This document shows positions 3,816 through 53,777 of a stretch of 64,000 bases of DNA, piece after piece. A model generated the notes under the pieces. The model made no database searches, was not told where the DNA came from, and saw only the letters and a program-made list of their open reading frames with translations. Each line of letters opens with the position of its first letter. The stretch's first letter is position 1. Both the position numbers and the translations under genes were made by a program. This stretch comes from Patescibacteria group bacterium (GTDB taxonomy: Bacteria; Patescibacteriota; Minisyncoccia; UBA6257; GWB1-50-10), in NCBI GenBank assembly GCA_030017555.1, contig JASEIC010000001.1, forward strand, positions 2,571 through 66,570, written 5' to 3'.

Positions 3816-4232
3816 CTATTCCGCGTCTAAAAAATCAAGATCAACAAGTTTACGCTCTAACTTTTCGCCGTCTCTTCTTGTTTCGTAAACTTCACGATAA
3901 GAAATCGTAACCTGTTGTCCTTTTTTAAATCGTTCCCATAATCTTTTGGTTTTTCTCTGGTTTTTTTCAATTATAAAAATTGTGCCGTGCTTTTCGCATC
4001 TAAAAATAACTACGTATTTCTCCGCAACGGAGATACTTGTAAGTTGCAGACCTAACTTACCATCCATATCGATACTAGGACTTAAGCCACTACCATGACG
4101 CGAGGGCACATAAATAAGATCAACAATTTCTCCTTTTTCACGAAGAACTGGTGAGTATTCTTTCTCGGTCGTTACACAACCAGTAAAAACAGATAATACA
4201 AGAACTGTAAATAGAATGCCTACTATTTTCAT
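3816..4232 (-). CDS. Lipoprotein (hypothetical)
   Basis: Signal peptide with lipobox LSVFTGC. 138 aa. Confidence 0.5.
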   Translation of the reverse strand: MKIVGILFTVLVLSVFTGCVTTEKEYSPVLREKGEIVDLIYVPSRHGSGLSPSIDMDGKLGLQLTSISVAEKYVVIFRCEKHGTIFIIEKNQRKTKRLWERFKKGQQVTISYREVYETRRDGEKLERKLVDLDFLDAE

Positions 4233-4356
4233 ACATATTTCTCCTTACATGTCTTTTGAATAGAATTGAATTGTTAATTAAACTCATATAAGTATAGCAT
4301 ACTATAATGCTCATGTCAAGTTTCCAAAAAACGAGGAAAAATCTACTATATTTAAT

Positions 4357-5559
4357 ATGAAAATACTGGCGATTGAAACATCCTGTGATGAAACTGCTTT
4401 GGCTTATATTGAAGCAAGGGACGGAATTACAAAACCGCGATTTAAGATTTTAGAAAATCTTGTTTCATCGCAAATTAATATCCATCGGCCTTGGGGCGGC
4501 GTAGTGCCGAACCTTGCCAAACGCGAACACATAAAAAATCTGCCTTTAATTTTTAAAAAATTCTTTAAAAAACATAAACCGAAACCAAATCTCATGGCTG
4601 TAACCGTCGGGCCTGGACTTGAACCAGCTCTTTGGGCAGGAATTAATTTTGCTCTAACCATTCACAAAGATTATTTCTCGTCCGCCAGCCGGCGAATCCC
4701 GCTTGTCGGCGCAAACCACTTAGAAGGGCATCTTCATAGTTTTTTACTGCCAAAAACAACTGGCGAAGAAATTTTAAAGAAAAGAGGGTTAAAATTTATT
4801 TTTCCGGCGGTGGCGCTTGTGGTAAGCGGCGGGCACACGATTTTACTTTTAATGAAATCGCTCACTGATTGGAAAAAATTAGGCGAAACCCGAGACGATG
4901 CTGTTGGCGAAGCATTTGATAAAGTGGCGAAAATGCTAAATCTTCCTTATCCCGGCGGACCGGAAATCTCCCGTCTCGCTTTAACCGGCGATTCCAAAGC
5001 CATTAAATTCCCCCGCCCAATGATTAATTCGGAAAGTTATGATTTTAGTTTTTCGGGACTCAAAACATCCGTACTTTATTTTCTCAAAAACAATGAAGCT
5101 AAAATTGTTTTTGATATGGGCATGTCCAAAACGCGTTCAAAAATCAACGAACGAATAGAAAATTTACCGGGCGCCCGCGCGCGAAGCAAACAGGGCGGTA
5201 AATTTTCGTCTATGAGCGAGTTAGATTTTAACGCGCGTGGACTTGCAAATAAAAAAATAATTTTAGCTGACATAGCCGCAAGCTTTCAACAAGCCGCTAT
5301 TGATGCTTTGGTCAAAAAAACAATGCGCGCTGCCAATGAATTCAGGATAAAATCAATTCTTCTTTCTGGCGGCGTGGCTGCCAACAAACTACTCCGTGAA
5401 ACTTTGATAAAAGAAACCAAAAACAATAACTTAAACTTTTTTGTGCCGCCGATAAATTTTAACACTGACAATGCCGTCATGATCGCCGTCGCGGCGTATA
5501 TTAACTTTTTAAAAAACAAAAAATATCCGCTTCGTGCCAATGGAATTTTAAATTTATAA
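4357..5559 (+). CDS. tsaD: tRNA N6-adenosine threonylcarbamoyltransferase TsaD (Kae1/YgjD family) with a lineage-specific insertion
   Basis: MKILAIETSCDETALAYIE N-terminus, GANHLEGHL metal-binding motif, and C-terminal SGGVAANKLLRE. Confidence 0.85.
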   Translation: MKILAIETSCDETALAYIEARDGITKPRFKILENLVSSQINIHRPWGGVVPNLAKREHIKNLPLIFKKFFKKHKPKPNLMAVTVGPGLEPALWAGINFALTIHKDYFSSASRRIPLVGANHLEGHLHSFLLPKTTGEEILKKRGLKFIFPAVALVVSGGHTILLLMKSLTDWKKLGETRDDAVGEAFDKVAKMLNLPYPGGPEISRLALTGDSKAIKFPRPMINSESYDFSFSGLKTSVLYFLKNNEAKIVFDMGMSKTRSKINERIENLPGARARSKQGGKFSSMSELDFNARGLANKKIILADIAASFQQAAIDALVKKTMRAANEFRIKSILLSGGVAANKLLRETLIKETKNNNLNFFVPPINFNTDNAVMIAVAAYINFLKNKKYPLRANGILNL

Positions 5560-5562
5560 ATA

Positions 5563-5588
5563 AAAACCCTTCGAAATTTCGAAGGGTT
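5563..5588. terminator. Bidirectional intrinsic terminator (perfect palindrome aaacccttcgaaatttcgaagggttt) after tsaD
   Basis: 13+13 nt perfect palindrome flanked by A/T runs, between convergent genes. Confidence 0.6.
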
Positions 5589-5612
5589 TGATTTACATCT
5601 ATTAAATAAGGT

Positions 5613-5744
5613 TCACTGTCCGGGTTTTCTTCCGCACGTGAACGCAACGTACGGCACAATTATAAAAAGTACAAACGCCAAAGCCACAGCGATTAGGAAG
5701 AAAAACAGACTTAAAAACACGTGAAGTGGTTGAATAGTTTCCAT
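5613..5744 (-). CDS. 43-aa hydrophobic micro-protein (candidate)
   Basis: Minus-strand ORF METIQPLHVFLSLFFFLIAVALAFVLFIIVPYVAFTCGRKPGQ, preceded by a perfect SD AAGGAGGAAAC-ATG. Below the ORF-track size cutoff. Competes with track ORF 5602..5808 in another frame. Confidence 0.3.
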   Translation of the reverse strand: METIQPLHVFLSLFFFLIAVALAFVLFIIVPYVAFTCGRKPGQ

Positions 5745-5753
5745 GTTTCCTCC

Positions 5754-5945
5754 TTAAAAAATTTGCGATATAGAAAGAAAAAAACAAACCGTCGCACTGA
5801 TTATACAAATAATTGCTGGGGTTTTATAAATTTTTCCTTTCATATTTTTGATTGCCGCCAGAAAGAAAAAGAACGTAAGAATTCCAAAGCTGATTGCATA
5901 CATACTTTTTTCAAAAAGCTTTGGTATTGTCATTAAAATATCCAT
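5754..5945 (-). CDS. 63-aa two-helix small membrane protein (hypothetical)
   Basis: SD TAAGGAGTC directly upstream of the ATG at 5945. Hydrophobic. Confidence 0.35.
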   Translation of the reverse strand: MDILMTIPKLFEKSMYAISFGILTFFFFLAAIKNMKGKIYKTPAIICIISATVCFFLSISQIF

Positions 5946-6067: not shown

Positions 6068-8167
6068 ATGTTTGATTCTCCCTACGACCCAAAAAAACAC
6101 GAAGAAAAAATCTACAAACTTTGGGAAAACTCGGGTTATTTTAACCCGGACAACTTAATCGGTAAAAAAACTTTTATTATTTACATGCCCTTACCCAACA
6201 TAACGGGCACGCTTCATATGGGCCACGCCCTTGATAATACTCTTCCCGATATTTTAATCCGCTATTACCGAATGAAAGGAATAAAAACCTTATGGCTTCC
6301 AGGCACAGATCATGCTGGTATTGCCACCCAATATGTCGTGGAAAAGGAACTTAAGAAAAAAGGAATTTCTCGATTTGAGCTTGGTCGAGAAAAATTTATT
6401 GAAAAAGTTTGGGAATGGAAAAAAGAATACGGCAATCTTATTTTGGAACAATTGAAAAAACTCGGTATTTCAGCTGATTGGTCGCGTGTGCGATTTACGA
6501 TGGATGAGGCCTATGCGCGGGACGTAAAACGCGCATTTATTCATTACTACAAAAAAGGCTGGCTTTATCGAGGTTTACGCACTGTAAATTGGTGTCCGCG
6601 TTGCGGCACAAGCCTTTCCGAGCTTGAGCTTGAATACAAAGACGAAGAAACAAAACTTTGGCACATAAAATATCCCGGCCGAAATGGCGATGTTACCGTA
6701 GTCACCACTCGACCCGAAACAATGTTGGGCGACACCGCAGTCGCGGTAAATCCAAGAGATGCGCGTTACAAAAAATTAATCGGCAAAACCGTTACCCTCC
6801 CGATTATGAATCGCGAAATACCAATTATTGAGGATGAAATTATTGATCAAAGTTTTGGCACGGGCGCAGTTAAAGTTACGCCCGCCCATGATATTGCTGA
6901 TTTCGAAATCAGCGAACGCCACAAACTTCCAATCATTCAAGTAATTGATGAACGCGGAAAAATGACAAAAGATGCGGGAAAATACGAAGGATTAAAAGCA
7001 ATCGAAGCGCGCACAAAAATCGTGGAAGAACTTACCAGGCTTGGACTTCTTTTAAAAACCGAAAAATATTCCCACCGAGTAACTGTTTGCTACCGTTGTA
7101 ATTCAACAATTGAACCAATTCCCTCTAAGCAATGGTTTTTGAAAATGAGTGAGCTTGCAAAGATGGCGCTTGAAGCGGTAAAAAGCGGGACCGTAAAAAT
7201 CCATCCCGAAAATTTTAAAAAGCCCTATTACGCGTGGCTCGAAAATATCCGCGACTGGACCGTATCGCGGCAGATTTGGTGGGGGCATCAACTGCCGGTG
7301 TGGTTTTGTAAAAATGACCCTGAAAAATTTGAAGTAAGCGAAGAAAAATCAAAAAAATGTTTATTCTGTAATAAATGCGAAATGGAACAATCGCCGGATA
7401 TACTGGACACCTGGTTTTCATCCGCTCTTTGGCCTTTTGCCGGATTTAGAGAAAAAGATCTTAAAAATTATTATCCCGGCGATTTAGTAATGAATGCTCG
7501 AGAAATTTTAAATCTTTGGGATGCCAGAATGATTTTTTCGGGATTAGAATTTAAAGGCGAAGTTCCTTTTAAAAACGTTTTAATTCACGGCACCATTCTT
7601 ACAAAAGACGGGAAACGCATGTCAAAAAGCTTGGGTACGGGCATTGATCCATTAAAATATATTGATCAATATGGCGCGGACGCAACTCGCTTTGCTGTTA
7701 TTTGGCAAGCAAATGGCCAGGATATTCGATGGGACGAAACAGCGGTTTTAGCCGGTCGAAAATTCACAAATAAAATTTGGAACGCGGCTCGCTTCGTAAT
7801 AGAAAAAACAAAAAATGTTAAAATAAAAAATAATGCGCCGAAAGCAAAAACTGAAGCCGACAAAAAAATTCTTGAATCTCTTTCGAATATAAAAAATAGC
7901 GTCGAAAAAGATATTGAAGACCTTGAATTCAACAAAGCCCTTCACAATTTTTACGATTTTTTTTGGCATGAATTCTGTGACGTCTATCTCGAAATATCAA
8001 AAAAACAATTTGAAAGCGAAAATAAAGAGTCGACCGTACAAATTTTAAACCGTATTTTAAGCGAATCGCTTAAACTTCTTCACCCTTTTATGCCTTTTAT
8101 CACTGAACAAATTTACCAAACACTTGAAGTAAAAAATAAAAAATTGCTCTTAATCGAACCATGGTAA
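6068..8167 (+). CDS. valS: Valyl-tRNA synthetase, short form lacking the long C-terminal coiled coil
   Basis: PNITGTLHMGHALDNTLPDILIRYYRMKG...GTDHAGIATQ (HIGH region). KMSKS motif (KRMSKSLGTGIDPL). 699 aa. Confidence 0.85.
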   Translation: MFDSPYDPKKHEEKIYKLWENSGYFNPDNLIGKKTFIIYMPLPNITGTLHMGHALDNTLPDILIRYYRMKGIKTLWLPGTDHAGIATQYVVEKELKKKGISRFELGREKFIEKVWEWKKEYGNLILEQLKKLGISADWSRVRFTMDEAYARDVKRAFIHYYKKGWLYRGLRTVNWCPRCGTSLSELELEYKDEETKLWHIKYPGRNGDVTVVTTRPETMLGDTAVAVNPRDARYKKLIGKTVTLPIMNREIPIIEDEIIDQSFGTGAVKVTPAHDIADFEISERHKLPIIQVIDERGKMTKDAGKYEGLKAIEARTKIVEELTRLGLLLKTEKYSHRVTVCYRCNSTIEPIPSKQWFLKMSELAKMALEAVKSGTVKIHPENFKKPYYAWLENIRDWTVSRQIWWGHQLPVWFCKNDPEKFEVSEEKSKKCLFCNKCEMEQSPDILDTWFSSALWPFAGFREKDLKNYYPGDLVMNAREILNLWDARMIFSGLEFKGEVPFKNVLIHGTILTKDGKRMSKSLGTGIDPLKYIDQYGADATRFAVIWQANGQDIRWDETAVLAGRKFTNKIWNAARFVIEKTKNVKIKNNAPKAKTEADKKILESLSNIKNSVEKDIEDLEFNKALHNFYDFFWHEFCDVYLEISKKQFESENKESTVQILNRILSESLKLLHPFMPFITEQIYQTLEVKNKKLLLIEPW

Positions 8168-8883
8168 TCACTACGATTCCTATCATTATTGTCGCGATAG
8201 TTGCGGCGCTTGCGCCCGCGCTCATTTGGTTTATATTACTTTCTAAAAAAGATATTCACCCGGAGCCAAAACGACTTATTATTTACACTTTTAATTTCGG
8301 CATAATGATAAGTCTTGCCGTACTCGCATTTCAAATCCTTTTCCGAAGCATTGCAGGCATACCAACCAGCAACTTAATTAGTATTATTAGCTTGGCGTTT
8401 ATCGAAGAAACATTTAAATTCTTATCGGCTTTTTGGGCAGTTCATAAAGATCCGGAATTTGATGAACCAATTGATGCCATGATTTATACAATAGTTGCCG
8501 CGCTTGGTTTTGCCACGGTTGAAAACTTTTTTATCATTCTAAATATTCCCAACATAACTGACATAATTGCCTCTTCTCCGCTTATTTTAAAAACAATTTC
8601 TCTTAGATTTGCCGGCGCGACCCTGCTTCATGTTCTGGCATCGGCAATCGTGGGTTATTATTGGGCGCGTGGTCGGAAAAAGAACAAAATCATAAAACCA
8701 ATAATGCTAGGCCTCATTATTGCCACAATTGTTCACTCTGTTTTCAACTTATTAATATACAAATTCCAATCCATAAACTTGTGGTATTCAAGCTTATTTT
8801 TAGTTATCGTGGTTTTCTTTGTATTAATAGATTTTGATAAACTCAAGAACGAAAAACCTTTTAATAATAAACCTTGCGGGTAG
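8161..8883 (+). CDS. PrsW-like intramembrane protease (putative); start overlaps the valS stop
   Basis: Polytopic membrane protein with conserved acidic and His motifs in TM segments (FIEETFKF, TVENFF, LLHVLASAIVGYYWA). Confidence 0.45.
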   Translation: MVITTIPIIIVAIVAALAPALIWFILLSKKDIHPEPKRLIIYTFNFGIMISLAVLAFQILFRSIAGIPTSNLISIISLAFIEETFKFLSAFWAVHKDPEFDEPIDAMIYTIVAALGFATVENFFIILNIPNITDIIASSPLILKTISLRFAGATLLHVLASAIVGYYWARGRKKNKIIKPIMLGLIIATIVHSVFNLLIYKFQSINLWYSSLFLVIVVFFVLIDFDKLKNEKPFNNKPCG

Positions 8884-23286: not shown

Positions 23287-23362
23287 TGGTGGGCGCGGAA
23301 GGGATCGAACCTTCGACTTCTGACTTATAAGGTCAGCGTTCTGCCACTGAACTACGCGCCCC
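23287..23362 (-). tRNA. tRNA-Ile with genomically encoded UAU anticodon; CCA encoded
   Basis: Reverse complement gggcgcgtagttcagtggcagaacgctgaccttataagtcagaagtcgaaggttcgatcccttccgcgcccacca. Anticodon stem ctgac/gtcag with loop ctTATaa. Confidence 0.8.
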
Positions 23363-40075: not shown

Positions 40076-40160
40076 GGGCAGGTGATGAAACTGGCAGACA
40101 TGCAAGGTTTAGGACCTTGTGCCGCAAGGCTTGAGGGTTCAAATCCCTCCCTGCCCACCA
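40076..40160 (+). tRNA. tRNA-Leu (anticodon UAG), class II with long variable arm; CCA encoded
   Basis: gggcaggtgatgaaactggcagacatgcaaggtttaggaccttgtgccgcaaggcttgagggttcaaatccctccctgcccacca. Anticodon loop ttTAGga. Confidence 0.85.
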
Positions 40161-40194
40161 AAACAGAACTGATTGGCTTTTTGAGAGTCAGATC

Positions 40195-40219
40195 GTGGGC
40201 GGCCGCAACGGCCGCCCAC
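40195..40219 (+). terminator. Very stable GC hairpin (gtgggcggccg caa cggccgcccac) followed by a U-rich tract; probable tRNA-Leu terminator
   Basis: 11-bp perfect GC stem with a 3-nt loop, then tgattttg. Confidence 0.55.
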
Positions 40220-40220
40220 T

Positions 40221-40297
40221 GATTTTGCGCACGACCAATTTCTTCTAAGAAGGAAAATAAAGTTTTTCTGCTCGGCTCCGCGCGAGTACGCGCGGGC
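40221..40297. repeat. Left copy of a ~77-bp GC-rich inverted repeat flanking gene 40365..42755
   Basis: gattttgcgcacgaccaatttcttctaagaaggaaaataaagtttttctgctcggctccgcgcgagtacgcgcgggc. Its reverse complement matches 42919..42995 with 1 mismatch and 1 indel. Confidence 0.85.
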
Positions 40298-40364
40298 TAA
40301 AAATAAAAATGGATGATAGTATTAAAATGTGGTATATTTGTACTATCGTATTTAACACAATCCC

Positions 40365-42755
40365 ATGCCTAAATCTATCAAGCACAATATACTTCCAGTT
40401 GTAGTTTTTATCACCGGAGCGTGCGTTTTGATTGTGGAAATAGTCGCAACTCGTGTGCTTTCTCCGTTTTATGGAAACACGATTTTTACAGTTTCCAGCG
40501 TAATTAGTGTCATCCTTGCAGCTTTGAGTGTTGGGTATTATGCAGGAGGTCGGCTTGCTGATCGTCACCCTTCTTTACGTTGGTTTTTCAGCATAATTCT
40601 TTTGAGCGGTCTTGCTTTACTCTTGTTTCATTTTATAGGCGCAATCGCTCTGCCGATTTTGGGGTATACGCTCTCAATTTCGGCTGGGCCGTTGATTTCT
40701 TCTTTACTTCTATTTTTCATCCCAGCATTTCTACTTGGCACATTATCTCCATACGCCGTTAAACTTCAAAGCGTAAATTTTCCTGAGCAAGGCATTGGAA
40801 GTGTTGCGGGAAAAATTTTCTTTTGGTCTACACTTGGAAGTATCGTCGGAAGTTTATTAGCCGGCTTTATACTCATTCCGTATTTCGGAGTAAATCAGAT
40901 TATCATTGCAAACGGAGTTGTATTATTTTTTCTCGGTTTGATACCGCTCTCAATATTAGGTGAGAAAAAATATCTAGGTAAATCTTTGTTGGCATTGATA
41001 ATTCTCGTTAGTATCTCGCTATATATTTTCCACACAACAAGAGAAAATGTTTTATATAGCAAAGACGGAATATACGAAAAAATCACTATTTATGATGGTC
41101 AGTTTGCCGGACGGCCAACAAGATTTTTCGAGCAAGATCGTAGCAGATCGGGCGCTATGTTTTTAGATTCCAATGACCCAAAAGATTTAGTGTATGACTA
41201 TACAAAATATTATTCACTCTACAAAGTATTCAATCCGGAAGTTAAAAATGCCCTCGTAATAGGCGGCGGCATGTATTCGATCCCAAAAGCATTGCTCGCA
41301 GATTTACCGAACGCAACTATTGATGTTTCAGAAATAGAGCCTTTATTATACGACCTCGCAAAAAAATACTTCGGCGTAAATGACAATCCGCGACTCCACA
41401 ATTACATCAATGACGGCCGCCGCCTACTTCACGATTCAAGCAAAAATTATGACCTGATATTTAGCGATGTGTGCTATTCGCTTTCAATACCAGCACACTT
41501 CACGACTGAAGATTTTTTTGAAATTGCTAAAGAGAAACTAAATAAAGATGGAATTTTCGTTACGAACATAATAGGCGATTTGTCACGCCAGCAACCCTCG
41601 CTAATCATGTCGGAAATCAAAACTTTTCAAGCTGTTTTTCCAAATAGTTATTTTTTTGCGGTTGAATCACCAAAAAAAACTCAATCGCAAAATATCATTT
41701 TTGTTGGGTACAATAGCGATAAACATATTGATCTGAACGCACCGTCAATCATTGCTAATTCCGACCCGATTATCCGTTCTCTACAAAATAAAGTTATAGA
41801 TACGAATAGATTTGATTTATCGCCCTATCCGATAATGACGGACAATTACTCGCCAGTAGAATATTTGACGGGCCAAGTGTTGCAAAGAACTTTCAATCAG
41901 AAGGATTTTTTTGATGGAAAAGAAATGTTAGCAATTATTGATCAACAATTACGCTATGGCCCGCGTTATCCAACCGCAACTGGGCATAAGCAAGTACAAG
42001 ATTTTCTCGTTGCGGAAATGAAGGAGCTAACGCAAGAAGTAAAGACGCAAACATGGCAACACACCGAATCAAACGGGAAATCGTATGAATTGACAAACAT
42101 TATTGCTCGACTATATCCAACACAGACAAAGCGCATAATACTTGCAACACACTATGACAGTCAAAAAAATTCTTTCAAAAATTCCTCCAATCAAGATCAA
42201 CCATCGCCAGGTGCCAACAATTCAGCTTCAGGCGTTGCGATATTAGTCGAGCTGGCTCGTCTTTTGGGTAATTCTCATGTGTTGCCGAGCGTTGGTGTTG
42301 ATATTGTATTTTTTGACGGCAAGGAAGGAGAGGAAAATCAAAGTGGAGATTTTACGAACTGGAAACCGCTCGGCTCCGCTTATTTTGCACAACATCTGAA
42401 CGAAATTTATGGGAATAATAAACCAGTGTCCGGTGTTGTGTTAGATATGGTCTGTGATAAGGATTTGAAAATTTCTAAAGAGGCTTCGTCTGTGAAAAAC
42501 GCTCCAACTCAAACAGAAGCATTTTGGAATATCGCGCGAAAAATCAACAGCAATGTATTTCAGAATAAGGTTGGGCAAGAAATTCGAGACGATCATACTT
42601 CACTCAACCAAGCTGGCATACCGAGCTTTCTTGTGATTGATTACGATTATCCTCAATACGCGACCACGAACGATACTATAGATAAATGCAGTTCTGAAAG
42701 TTTACAAACGGTTGCCGAGGCAGTTTGGAATTATGTCTACTACGGAGTTCAATAA
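40365..42755 (+). CDS. Three-part fusion: N-terminal MFS-like polytopic membrane domain, central spermidine-synthase-like (class I MTase fold) domain, and C-terminal M28-peptidase / glutaminyl-cyclase-like domain
   Basis: ~8 N-terminal TMs. Spermidine-synthase-like core VIGGGMYSIPKALL...DLIFSDV. C-terminal M28-like ATHYDSQKN...PGANNSASGVAILVELARLL...VVLDMV. Confidence 0.6.
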   Translation: MPKSIKHNILPVVVFITGACVLIVEIVATRVLSPFYGNTIFTVSSVISVILAALSVGYYAGGRLADRHPSLRWFFSIILLSGLALLLFHFIGAIALPILGYTLSISAGPLISSLLLFFIPAFLLGTLSPYAVKLQSVNFPEQGIGSVAGKIFFWSTLGSIVGSLLAGFILIPYFGVNQIIIANGVVLFFLGLIPLSILGEKKYLGKSLLALIILVSISLYIFHTTRENVLYSKDGIYEKITIYDGQFAGRPTRFFEQDRSRSGAMFLDSNDPKDLVYDYTKYYSLYKVFNPEVKNALVIGGGMYSIPKALLADLPNATIDVSEIEPLLYDLAKKYFGVNDNPRLHNYINDGRRLLHDSSKNYDLIFSDVCYSLSIPAHFTTEDFFEIAKEKLNKDGIFVTNIIGDLSRQQPSLIMSEIKTFQAVFPNSYFFAVESPKKTQSQNIIFVGYNSDKHIDLNAPSIIANSDPIIRSLQNKVIDTNRFDLSPYPIMTDNYSPVEYLTGQVLQRTFNQKDFFDGKEMLAIIDQQLRYGPRYPTATGHKQVQDFLVAEMKELTQEVKTQTWQHTESNGKSYELTNIIARLYPTQTKRIILATHYDSQKNSFKNSSNQDQPSPGANNSASGVAILVELARLLGNSHVLPSVGVDIVFFDGKEGEENQSGDFTNWKPLGSAYFAQHLNEIYGNNKPVSGVVLDMVCDKDLKISKEASSVKNAPTQTEAFWNIARKINSNVFQNKVGQEIRDDHTSLNQAGIPSFLVIDYDYPQYATTNDTIDKCSSESLQTVAEAVWNYVYYGVQ

Positions 42756-42918
42756 AAAGTAGCCCGCGCCCGCCGAAAATCCGCCGCGCATTCCTCCCGC
42801 ACCCTCCTGCGCGGCGGATACAAAATCTCGCAGTTTTGAAAAAAGAGCCGAGGCAAAGCAAATCCTTTTCCTCCCGCAAAAATAGTTTTGCTTTGCCTTG
42901 TCCGCTTTGTGTCCCGCC

Positions 42919-42995
42919 GCTCGCGCGTACTCGCGCGGAGCCGAGCAGAAAAACTTTATTTTCCTTCTTAGAAGAAATTGGTCGTGCGCAAATCC
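42919..42995. repeat. Right copy of the ~77-bp inverted repeat
   Basis: gctcgcgcgtactcgcgcggagccgagcagaaaaactttattttccttcttagaagaaattggtcgtgcgcaaatc is the reverse complement of 40221..40297. Confidence 0.85.
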
Positions 42996-43130
42996 GAAAA
43001 GCAAGGAACATTTTTCTTTGAGATTGCCGAGTGAAGCAAGGCGGTGGCGGGACGATTCATTCAGCGATTTTGGAAATAGGTGCGAGCTTGGTACAATAGA
43101 GACACCAAAATTTGAAGGTAACTACAAAAT

Positions 43131-44015
43131 TTATTTTCTTCTTCGGCCATGGAAAGCTTCGTGAACTTCGCGAAGTTCTTTATTGGTAATGTGCGTGTAA
43201 ATCTGAGTCGTTGAGATGTTGGCGTGCCCCAGAAGCTCCTGGACCGAGCGCAAATCCGCGCCGTTTATCAAAAGATCGGTCGCAAAACAATGTCTTAAGA
43301 GATGCGGATGAACTTTTTTAGAAATCCCGGCCTCACGAGACCTTAAATCAACTAATCGCTCAACTGCTCGAGGCGTAATTCGTCCAATAACTTCGTTGCT
43401 CTTTGTTAAACTCACAAAAAGAGCTTCTTCAATATCAGTTCGTTTATTTAAATATTTTTTAATGGTTTGTTTTGCCATATCAGCCAGAAAAACAACACGC
43501 AATTTATCGCCTTTGCCGCGGATAGATATTTCACCACGCTCCAAATCAATATTGCGATTTAACTTGCAAAGTTCAGATAACCGAAGACCCGTAGAAAACA
43601 GGATTTCTAAAATCGCGCGATCCCTCAAGCTCCGAAGATCGTTGCCGCCTGAAGCATTAAGCAAGCGTTCTAATTCTTTATAATCCAAAATTTCGATATC
43701 GCGACGCGAAACTTTTGGCAATTCAATTGTTTCGGGAGATAAAACTTCTATACCGCGTTTAATTAAATATTTTAAAAAATTTCTGATGGCAATGACATAA
43801 TAGCTTTGGGTTATTTTTTTCAGTTCTTGCCTTGAAAGGGAAACGCGAAAACTTCTTATCACTTCGGGCGTAATATCTTTTACTTTTTTAATGTTTGTTC
43901 CTTTTACGAATGCATTTAAATAACGCTCATAATTTTCCCGGGTTTTCAAAGACCGGTTTTTTTCAACTTCCAAATAATCCAGGTAGTCTTTTAAATAATT
44001 TTCTATTTCACTCAT
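43131..44015 (-). CDS. Tyrosine recombinase, XerC/XerD-like
   Basis: Catalytic R...HxxR...Y tetrad (LRDRAILEILFSTGLRLSEL; HLLRHCFATDLL; GHANISTTQIYTH). 294 aa. Confidence 0.8.
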   Translation of the reverse strand: MSEIENYLKDYLDYLEVEKNRSLKTRENYERYLNAFVKGTNIKKVKDITPEVIRSFRVSLSRQELKKITQSYYVIAIRNFLKYLIKRGIEVLSPETIELPKVSRRDIEILDYKELERLLNASGGNDLRSLRDRAILEILFSTGLRLSELCKLNRNIDLERGEISIRGKGDKLRVVFLADMAKQTIKKYLNKRTDIEEALFVSLTKSNEVIGRITPRAVERLVDLRSREAGISKKVHPHLLRHCFATDLLINGADLRSVQELLGHANISTTQIYTHITNKELREVHEAFHGRRRK

Positions 44016-44955: not shown

Positions 44956-45208
44956 AGGCTTTGTCTCCGACCTTGCGTCGGAGCAATAAAACCTTACCCC
45001 GCCAAGAGTTTTATAAATACAGTAATTAGCAATAAAATGTTTAATAGCAATCAAAACAATTTTAAGTCGAATAAGCGTCCAGTTAAAAACTGGAGCGAGG
45101 TGCTCAATGTTGTAGTAAAATTGATTGCTCCGCAATCATCCCGCATACTGCGGGATGGAAGCGAGGCTTCCACTTCGCGTTGGGCTTGTAAATTTTAATA
45201 ACATTGGC

Positions 45209-53630: not shown

Positions 53631-53777
53631 AAAATGAATCCCTCACCCTCCAAAGATTGTTTAACATAAAAACAAAAAATATTCCTATGAATTACAAGCA
53701 ATTAAAAACAACAAGTTTCAAAACGCTTCTCTGGTCGCGAAGCGACTTTATCTTTGAAAGGTGAGGGATGAAATTTT
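53631..53777. mobile_element. Miniature inverted-repeat element (copy A, no ORF) of the tccctcaccc/gggtgaggga family. The right repeat provides the stop, SD and ATG of the downstream gene.
   Basis: Left aaaatgaatccctcaccctccaaagat (53631-53657) and right atctttgaaaggtgagggatgaaatttt (53750-53777) are imperfect inverted repeats around a 92-bp core with an internal gtcgcgaagcgac hairpin. Confidence 0.45.

Follow-up and report, generated by a model that had tools for sequence, protein, structure and literature searches.

What is the GC-rich stretch that separates two convergent genes at positions 42756-43130 of the 64-kb window (the whole stretch of DNA analyzed here), and in what form does it act? 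An earlier note on this DNA had described a GC-rich noncoding island with two strong hairpins, both exposing the same C-rich motif in their loops, and had likened it to small regulatory RNAs (sRNAs) that pair with Shine-Dalgarno (SD) sequences. The region is noncoding and carries a ~300-nt, three-domain, lineage-restricted structure, consisting of hairpin 1, hairpin 2, and the multibranch domain 3, with stems that are maintained by compensatory change between two lineages. The observation is therefore solid; the mechanism proposed for it earlier is unlikely, and a place at the ends of convergent transcripts is tentatively favored instead.

A noncoding region with three structured domains

The region begins at the stop codon of a plus-strand gene for a 796-amino-acid protein and extends to a minus-strand gene for a Xer-type recombinase. 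With a GC fraction of 0.50, peaking at 0.75 in 60 nt, it is the GC-richest intergenic region of the window, whose overall GC content is 37.6% and whose other intergenic regions range from 0.22 to 0.36, except for those with tRNA genes. The open reading frames (ORFs) that run across it had already been taken for artifacts, and comparison bears this out: their frames are not kept in the homologous region of relatives, where the similarity switches frame and indels of 1, 2, 4, and 12 nt occur, so that a coding reading was rejected. In searches of the window and the relatives, no Rfam family matched the element at the gathering score, and relaxing the limit to E ≤ 10 added only spurious matches (miRNA, plastid, and Hrs12); the covariance-model scan suggested in the earlier note thus yielded no credible match, RsaE included. 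ARAGORN reported three tRNA genes in the window and nothing else.

Both hairpins fold as described earlier, and on the plus strand their fold energies lie well below those of dinucleotide shuffles (z = -4.9 for hairpin 1 and z = -4.3 for hairpin 2); for the region folded as a whole, z is -3.2 on the plus strand and -1.4 on the minus strand. Hairpin 2 is lengthened by an A-T pair to 42851/42898 and enclosed by an outer helix of 4 bp (42847-42851 with 42901-42905). The motif common to the loops, TTCCTCCCGCA, is found in these two loops, one copy apiece, and nowhere else in the 64 kb, and the 11-nt string that the loops share arose in 1 of 20,000 shuffles of loops of the same composition; an alternative whole-window null, which allowed one mismatch and gave 26 of 100 shuffles, is weaker and less suitable. 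In hairpin 1, the loop (42793-42807) is moreover a pyrimidine mirror repeat, CCTCCC-GCA-CCCTCC (composition-shuffle p ~0.03), with four G-runs on the opposite strand. Judged from symmetry statistics, this geometry would fit a triplex clamp or a G-quadruplex. Domain 3 is closed by the long-range stem GTCCCGCCGC/GCGGTGGCGGGAC, in which two G-U pairs are possible on the plus strand only.

Compensatory changes in a related lineage

Outside the window, the element was found in one lineage only, on contigs L018, L019, and L020 (protein P0001, 90% identical). There it is ~68% identical in sequence, with every structural feature kept. All 11 compared pairs of hairpin 1 and all 15 of hairpin 2 are preserved, and each hairpin shows five changes on both sides of the stem and none on one side; all of these changes give Watson-Crick pairs whichever strand is read. 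In domain 3, the closing stem is likewise kept, with one change on both sides and two changes from G-U to Watson-Crick pairs, while inner hairpin a is re-formed from wholly different sequence and domain 3 as a whole is a 170-nt near-palindrome. The earlier note had proposed a search for compensatory base changes in relatives and had staked its observation on the conservation of stems and loop motif: both are present, in the ten double changes and in the paired positions and loop cores that are kept. As the conservation rests on two lineages, the shuffle control has a floor of ~3%.

The loops are conserved better than the stems, with TTCCTCCC kept in hairpin 1 and TCCTTTYCCCC...AAAATAG in hairpin 2. 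Where they do differ, the two loops shift alike: namely, CCCGCA appears twice in the window and CCCCAGA twice in the relative, in which the string shared between the loops is a 7-mer (449 of 20,000 shuffles). The mirror repeat of hairpin 1 is also retained, as CCTCCCCA-G-ACCCCTCC at ~2609-2625 of L019 (composition-shuffle p ~0.002).

The element is absent from L077, the closest genome available, and from relatives in which the 796-amino-acid gene is 77-85% identical. No further copies were detected in the window, at the other loci examined, in viral contigs, or in phage records. A scan of JGI metagenomes with the pattern GCCCGCGCCCGCCN{8,38}ATTCCTCCC returned 43 stretches, all unrelated and most from contigs of 54-74% GC; two low-GC stretches (L038 and L044) proved on inspection to be chance matches. 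Nor is the C-rich motif a general feature of the gene's 3′ flank over 23 lineages, with a loose resemblance in L006 and L022. The homologous gene of L006 (Wolfebacteria) is flanked by near-identical, 44-nt palindromic, terminator-like hairpins (5870-5917 and 8540-8584), and its downstream region contains GCGGGATTCTTCCCGCCTCCC, which is loosely like the loop of hairpin 1.

Table 1. Positions of the element, its domains, and the surrounding features in the window.
Feature	Position	Strand	Details
tRNA-Leu(UAG)	40076..40160	+	Marks the left edge of the block in which the window and the closest genome differ; ARAGORN, Rfam
hp0	40195..40219	+	Canonical intrinsic terminator after tRNA-Leu; 11 bp, 3-nt loop, tail TGATTTTG; terminator scan
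Left copy of 74-nt inverted repeat	40224..40297		Truncated left arm without hairpins 1 and 2
Promoter region of the 796-amino-acid gene	40330..40364	+	Putative extended -10 TGGTATATT at 40330-40338; CACAAT at 40356-40361, 3 nt before ATG; no SD; read from sequence
Fused MFS/spermidine-synthase-like/peptidase M28 gene, 796 amino acids	40365..42755	+	Pfam, NCBIfam
Conserved leader, forming the inner terminus of the repeat arm	42756..42778	+	AAAGTAGCCCGCGCCCGCCGAAA; near-invariant in the window, L018, L019, and L020
Hairpin 1	42779..42819		Arms 42779-42790/42808-42819, 12 perfect bp; 17-nt loop TTCCTCCCGCACCCTCC
Hairpin 2	42847..42905		Core arms 42852-42862/42887-42897, 11 bp; 24-nt loop TCCTTTTCCTCCCGCAAAAATAGT carrying the shared motif
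Domain 3, ~143 nt	42911..43053		Closing long-range stem 42911-42920/43044-43053; inner hairpins a, b, and c; minimum-energy and consensus folds
Right copy of 74-nt inverted repeat	42919..42992		Within domain 3: hairpin a and 5′ half of hairpin b
Promoter-like site, outward-facing	43070..43097	+	TTGGAA, 16 nt, TACAAT, with TG before the second hexamer; consensus scan only
Xer-type tyrosine recombinase gene	43131..44015	-	Convergent with the 796-amino-acid gene; Pfam, NCBIfam XerA/XerC/XerD
Canonical terminators of the genome	5564-5589, 9378-9405, 12837-12874, 18444-18471, 40195-40219		

An inverted repeat around the gene

Domain 3 overlaps the right copy of an inverted repeat, as the earlier note had stated of its third hairpin region: positions 42919-42992 are 99% complementary to 40224-40297, perfectly so over 71 nt. 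The two copies bracket the 796-amino-acid gene together with its promoter, the left copy lying just upstream of the latter; this arrangement, like the T-rich tails on the minus strand discussed below, is context that was absent from the earlier reading. The left copy in the window retains, in addition to the 74-nt unit, the inner terminus GCGCGGGCTA, which is common to the full left arm of L018, and it is a deletion derivative. In L018, the repeat is perfect over 90 nt at both ends, up to where the contig stops, and 425 nt of its left arm and flank match the right arm and flank of L019 without a difference; the arm of the relative, at least 90 nt as shown, is probably about 425 nt in length. 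The left copy of L019 has lost one arm of hairpin 1, while in all four contigs the right (3′) copy has remained whole. This pattern of decayed left copies and an intact right copy indicates that it is the copy 3′ of the gene, and not the pair of ends, that is under constraint.

Within a genome, the repeat copies are 99-100% identical; between the lineages, the figure is ~68%. The 74-nt unit of the window is closer to that of another lineage, L001 (76% identical), than to that of L018 (66%), whereas the gene itself is closer to the L018 homolog (90%) than to the L001 homolog (71%), indicating that the region is a mosaic. This mosaic, together with the restriction to few lineages and the visible decay of the left copies, could be explained if the element were a functionless remnant, i.e., an old inverted duplication of the 3′ flank that was kept alike by gene conversion and had its palindromes restored by template switching. 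Such an origin is improbable, given that two stems show ten changes on both sides and none on one side, that pairing is 100% in both lineages at ~68% identity, and that conservation extends to the loop cores, the mirror symmetry, and the domain 3 architecture.

A possible role at the ends of convergent transcripts

Tentatively, the element is read as a cis-acting RNA structure that stops or protects convergent transcripts, an interpretation that is plausible though far from secure. The element accompanies the MFS/spermidine-synthase/M28 gene as its 3′ flank and, in a mirrored copy, as its 5′ flank, and its hairpins would form in transcripts entering the convergent intergenic region, either stopping them or protecting their 3′ ends. 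Since the T-rich tails lie on the minus strand, it is the xer transcript that, in the window, would be ended before running antisense into the 796-amino-acid gene, and the mirrored left copy of the relative would block upstream transcription from entering the gene; the inverted repeat would then amount to two insulators that face inward, one on each side of a gene that has a promoter of its own. Action in RNA, the strand concerned, and the role in termination or protection are all points that we infer.

Among the 10 nt beyond each of the two stems, T residues on the minus strand number 3 and 7 for the window and 7 and 6 for the relative, compared with 2 and 5 and with 1 and 3, respectively, on the plus strand. 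A U-tract is found on the minus strand only, as UCUUUUUUC after hairpin 2 and UUUUCGG after hairpin 1 in the window and as UUCUUUUUCGGAUUUUU and CUUUUGUUUUUG in the relative. The proposed role at transcript ends is further supported by stems that are perfect in both lineages despite their differing sequence and by hp0, which fills the equivalent inward-facing place on the left side of the window. Also in its favor, the copy that stays intact is the one 3′ of the gene, and the element goes with this gene and not with xer: L018, L019, and L020 carry it but no tyrosine recombinase, and L077 and L078 carry xer but not the element. Like intrinsic or bidirectional terminators, the element has perfect, GC-rich stems that compensatory change maintains, lies between convergent genes, and carries T-rich tails (on the minus strand).

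Several features weigh against this interpretation. The loops of hairpins 1 and 2, at 17 and 24 nt, exceed the 3-8 nt expected of an intrinsic terminator, so that the terminator scan calls neither hairpin; the genome's canonical terminators have loops of 3-4 nt and are flanked by A-tracts and T-tracts. A plain terminator would not predict loops that are conserved above their stems and change in concert, and the 143-nt multibranch domain that follows is larger and more elaborate than termination requires. The strand evidence is mixed, in that the G-U pairs of domain 3 favor the plus strand and the T-rich tails the minus strand, and with two lineages only, template-switch correction of quasi-palindromes could mimic the compensatory changes. 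The conserved C-rich loops, which a terminator or insulator leaves unexplained, are read here as a binding site for a partner rather than as anti-SD sequences.

An alternative is an independent structured noncoding RNA, or one derived from a 3′ untranslated region, whose two loops and domain 3 would bind a specific protein or nucleic acid partner; candidates are a C-rich binder such as Rho or a KH-domain protein if the plus strand is transcribed and GGA-type loop recognition if it is the minus strand. Consistent with such an RNA, which we regard as possible if somewhat doubtful, are the GC-rich island in an AT-rich genome (matched only by intergenic regions that contain tRNA genes), compensatory changes in three helices, hairpins unlike the canonical terminators, the mirror repeat kept in both lineages, and loops that exceed the stems in conservation and covary, with the shuffle counts given above for the 11-mer and the 7-mer. 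The scan found no promoter-like site upstream of hairpin 1 and no canonical plus-strand terminator downstream, so that an independent RNA would be without a clear promoter or terminator of its own. It would also be without an Rfam match or a complementary partner site above chance in the window, it would be confined to two lineages and missing from L077 and from the relatives with a 77-85% identical gene, and its duplication as an inverted repeat with decaying left copies would be unusual for an RNA gene.

The promoter-like site at the outer end of the element (Table 1) has an analog in L018, an outward-facing TTCAAA-16-TACAAT at 4268-4241 on the minus strand, for which the scan flagged no TG. 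The outward site would read antisense into xer in the window and faces a serine recombinase gene in L018.

Scarce SD sequences and the C-rich loops

The earlier interpretation as a trans-acting sRNA, the CCUCCC loops of which would pair with the SD sequences of target mRNAs in the manner of RsaE or RNAIII, has in its favor C-rich, G-free loops on stable stems and a motif that is kept in the relative. Its structural part stands: the element is noncoding, strongly structured, and conserved in stems and loops. The anti-SD part does not. In the 64 kb examined, an SD-like motif precedes ~6 of 55 genes, and many genes look leaderless, with a box resembling a -10 element immediately 5′ of the ATG; the plus strand of the window lacks GGGAGG, and no CCTCCC site lies within a translation start region. 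The analogy to RsaE and RNAIII consequently fails a key requirement, although the C-rich loops are still real. An anti-SD motif has been detected in the 16S rRNA of only 48% of Parcubacteria (PMC9297842). Firmicute sRNAs of this type (RsaE/RoxS, RNAIII) do expose UCCC- or CCUCC-type motifs in hairpin loops, as the element does, but the element differs from them in that Rfam matches neither RsaE nor any other family, that a promoter and terminator of its own were not found, and that it is duplicated as an inverted repeat around a gene in an SD-poor host. Pairing with SD sequences is accordingly held to be highly improbable.

A search of the window for partners of the loops gave 28 matches to TGCGGGAGGAA with at most two mismatches, as opposed to 13.7 expected, none of them at an informative place, and the exact loop heptamers occur at chance frequency. 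Among the gene starts (e.g., at 6068, 47387, and 53193), several have a TATAAT-like box directly 5′ of the ATG, which suggests that leaderless mRNAs may be widespread. The genes at 53768 and 60120 have GGTGAGGGATGAA in common at their starts.

A variable block beside a tRNA gene

Homologs of the 796-amino-acid gene occur in many genomes of the candidate phyla radiation (CPR), at 41-90% identity, and place the window among CPR/Patescibacteria, Parcubacteria-like genomes; exact-protein look-ups returned no record of the 796-amino-acid protein or of S15. The 75 nt 5′ of the ATG are 81% identical in L018 and L019. In L077, the Xer protein of which is 88% identical, a gap of 3 nt separates tRNA-Leu(UAG) from the xer stop codon, whereas the window has 2,970 nt at this position (40161-43130), comprising hp0, the left repeat, the promoter, the gene, and the element. 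In L078, tRNA-Val(UAC) takes the place of tRNA-Leu beside the xer stop codon. The block from tRNA-Leu to xer is thus a presence/absence (indel) difference relative to the closest genome. Between the window and L077, tRNA-Leu(UAG) itself differs strongly (acceptor stem GGGCAGG versus GCCCCCG), although the glycosyltransferase gene just upstream of it is about 90% identical in DNA. In other lineages, the 796-amino-acid gene lies beside tRNA-Ser(GGA), beside tRNA-Leu(UAG), or between aldolase and Band_7 genes, and in L001, a hairpin homologous to hp0 precedes the 74-nt unit upstream of the homologous gene.

These arrangements raise an alternative in which the element acts as DNA: namely, its inverted repeats would serve a relocatable cassette of promoter and gene as signals for recombination or mobility, with the hairpins forming in single-stranded or cruciform DNA. 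Possible forms are an invertible segment, a unit resembling a dif module that uses the host Xer, or a cassette free of insertion sequences (IS) and moved in trans. Several observations agree with a DNA element: the inverted repeat brackets the gene and its promoter (74 nt in the window, 90 nt proven in L018, with 425 nt of L018/L019 identity); the near-identity of copies within a genome against ~68% between lineages amounts to concerted evolution; the 2,970-nt block is missing in L077, with tRNA-Val there in L078; the gene adjoins tRNA genes of differing identity across lineages; the stem changes are all Watson-Crick on both strands; and a recombinase is the neighbor in both lineages, Xer in the window and a large serine recombinase in L018.

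We nevertheless consider action as DNA unlikely. No target-site duplication or terminal repeats can be read at the borders of the block, and these borders (40161 and 43130) differ from those of the repeat, where direct repeats are likewise missing. The decay of left copies alongside a maintained right copy shows that the ends are not jointly constrained, and no more copies were found in the window, JGI metagenomes, viral contigs, or phages. The neighboring recombinases are of unrelated types and occupy different positions. The window's Xer has very many CPR homologs: of the 8,000 word-sharing candidates scored, 7,974 reached E ≤ 1e-40, and the 119 best after the self-match are 69-88% identical. 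The order xer-rpsO-NYN-pnp is shared by genomes with and without the cassette, L077 and L078 among the latter, and Xer is a conserved housekeeping gene and no part of the element; its adjacency is most simply seen as coincidental. L018 also does not look like the simple inversion product of an L019-like genome: a reading of the two as alternative inversion states was set aside, the right arm of L018 being without the patch that is diverged in the left arm of L019. Two ideas of integration at the tRNA gene were discarded as well. The loops, if taken to mimic the 3′ end of the adjacent tRNA, as an attachment site might, show only a loose C-rich similarity to tRNA-Leu and to the tRNA-Ser(GGA) of L018, and no second copy of the tRNA-Leu 3′ end exists in the window.

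Loci of other genomes show further repeats and tRNA genes. In both L077 (8885-8972) and L078 (6885-6960), the convergent tRNA lies 1-3 nt from the xer stop codon, and the spot appears to be a hotspot of varying gene content. Upstream of the hp0-like hairpin of L001, positions 700-790 contain ...GGGTTCGAGC...CCCACCA, which resembles a degenerate tRNA 3′ end; neither ARAGORN nor Rfam reports a tRNA there. In L018, a 120-nt perfect inverted repeat (2444-2563 and 4116-4235) brackets the gene for the large serine recombinase, immediately after tRNA-Ser(GGA) and contiguous with the element's left arm, and could be either a real nested repeat or an assembly artifact; L021 and L068 have tRNA-Ser(GGA) directly before the gene, without the recombinase. 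L014 carries a 74-78-nt repeat three times (5564-5637, 5812-5889, and 7556-7629), around tRNA-Leu(UAG) and after a homologous, apparently truncated gene, and the downstream copy starts like the 3′ half of the adjoining tRNA-Leu(UAA).

Relation to known elements

REP/BIME, ERIC, Neisseria Correia, and pneumococcal BOX/RUP elements can affect termination and mRNA stability. Like them, the element is noncoding and palindromic, is structured as RNA, and lies in a 3′ flank between convergent genes; unlike them, it is not dispersed, occupying a single locus in 64 kb with no copy found elsewhere, it has neither terminal inverted repeats of its own nor a target duplication, and at ~300 nt and three domains it is much longer than most. 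The locus resembles invertons and the pdif modules of Acinetobacter in that a gene lies between inverted repeats beside a Xer-type gene and that the module is present or absent in close genomes. However, pdif modules are defined by inverted XerC/XerD sites, whereas the repeat here is structured DNA over 74 to at least 315 nt and not a short core site, and inspection by eye, without a CPR-specific dif model, revealed no convincing dif-like 28-bp core (two 11-bp arms and a 6-bp spacer). Invertons differ in that a single orientation was observed here and that the neighboring Xer is a housekeeping protein, with no dedicated invertase linked to the locus. Mobile insertion cassettes likewise hold a passenger gene with its own promoter between inverted repeats and lack a transposase, and we know of no cognate transposase for the present cassette; IS-like short terminal repeats and a target-site duplication are missing here, and the left arm is decayed. 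Integron cassettes with attC sites are set apart by the gene's own promoter region and by a recombinase that is convergent and Xer-like, the integron-integrase model scoring 128 bits on the Xer gene versus a cutoff of 265.

The element is therefore best filed within the broad class of structured intergenic hairpin elements, in which its conserved loops that change in concert, the mirror-repeat loop, and the inverted-repeat arrangement around a relocatable gene are unusual. A more far-reaching proposal, which we rate as very unlikely, would have it be either a structured nucleic acid module that marks the ends of a relocatable gene cassette beside tRNA genes, with loops that recognize a purine-rich partner and thereby direct or permit recombination through a recombinase of the host (Xer or a large serine recombinase), or a CPR-specific class of structured RNA with sequence-specific loop recognition. 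In the former case, the loop CCUCCC-N3-CCCUCC would have the geometry of a triplex clamp for a GGGAGG strand.

CPR/Patescibacteria have tiny genomes in which, to our knowledge, almost no noncoding elements have been described. The structure described here, 300 nt long and backed by covariation, flanks on both sides a gene whose block is present or absent between close genomes, and it offers a handle both on how transcripts are ended or insulated in CPR without signals of the SD type and on the movement of single genes to sites beside tRNA genes. Should it be no more than an unusual cluster of terminators, its value lies mainly in annotation, i.e., spurious ORFs are removed and the reading as an anti-SD sRNA is ruled out.

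Further hairpins and a tRNA gene in the window

The coding region 4357-5559 contains, at 5158-5207, a hairpin of 12 perfect bp whose 26-nt loop, GGCGCCCGCGCGCGAAGCAAACAGGG, is GC-rich. At 45137-45157, a perfect 9-bp hairpin, CATCCCGCA[TAC]TGCGGGATG, extends over the likely ATG of the PNPase gene (pnp), so that the start codon could be sequestered in it; the heptamer TCCCGCA is common to this hairpin and the loops of the element, and it occurs at a frequency that corresponds to chance. ARAGORN assigns tRNA-Ile(UAU) to positions 23287-23361 of the window and 7741-7813 of L078, an uncommon bacterial way to read AUA.

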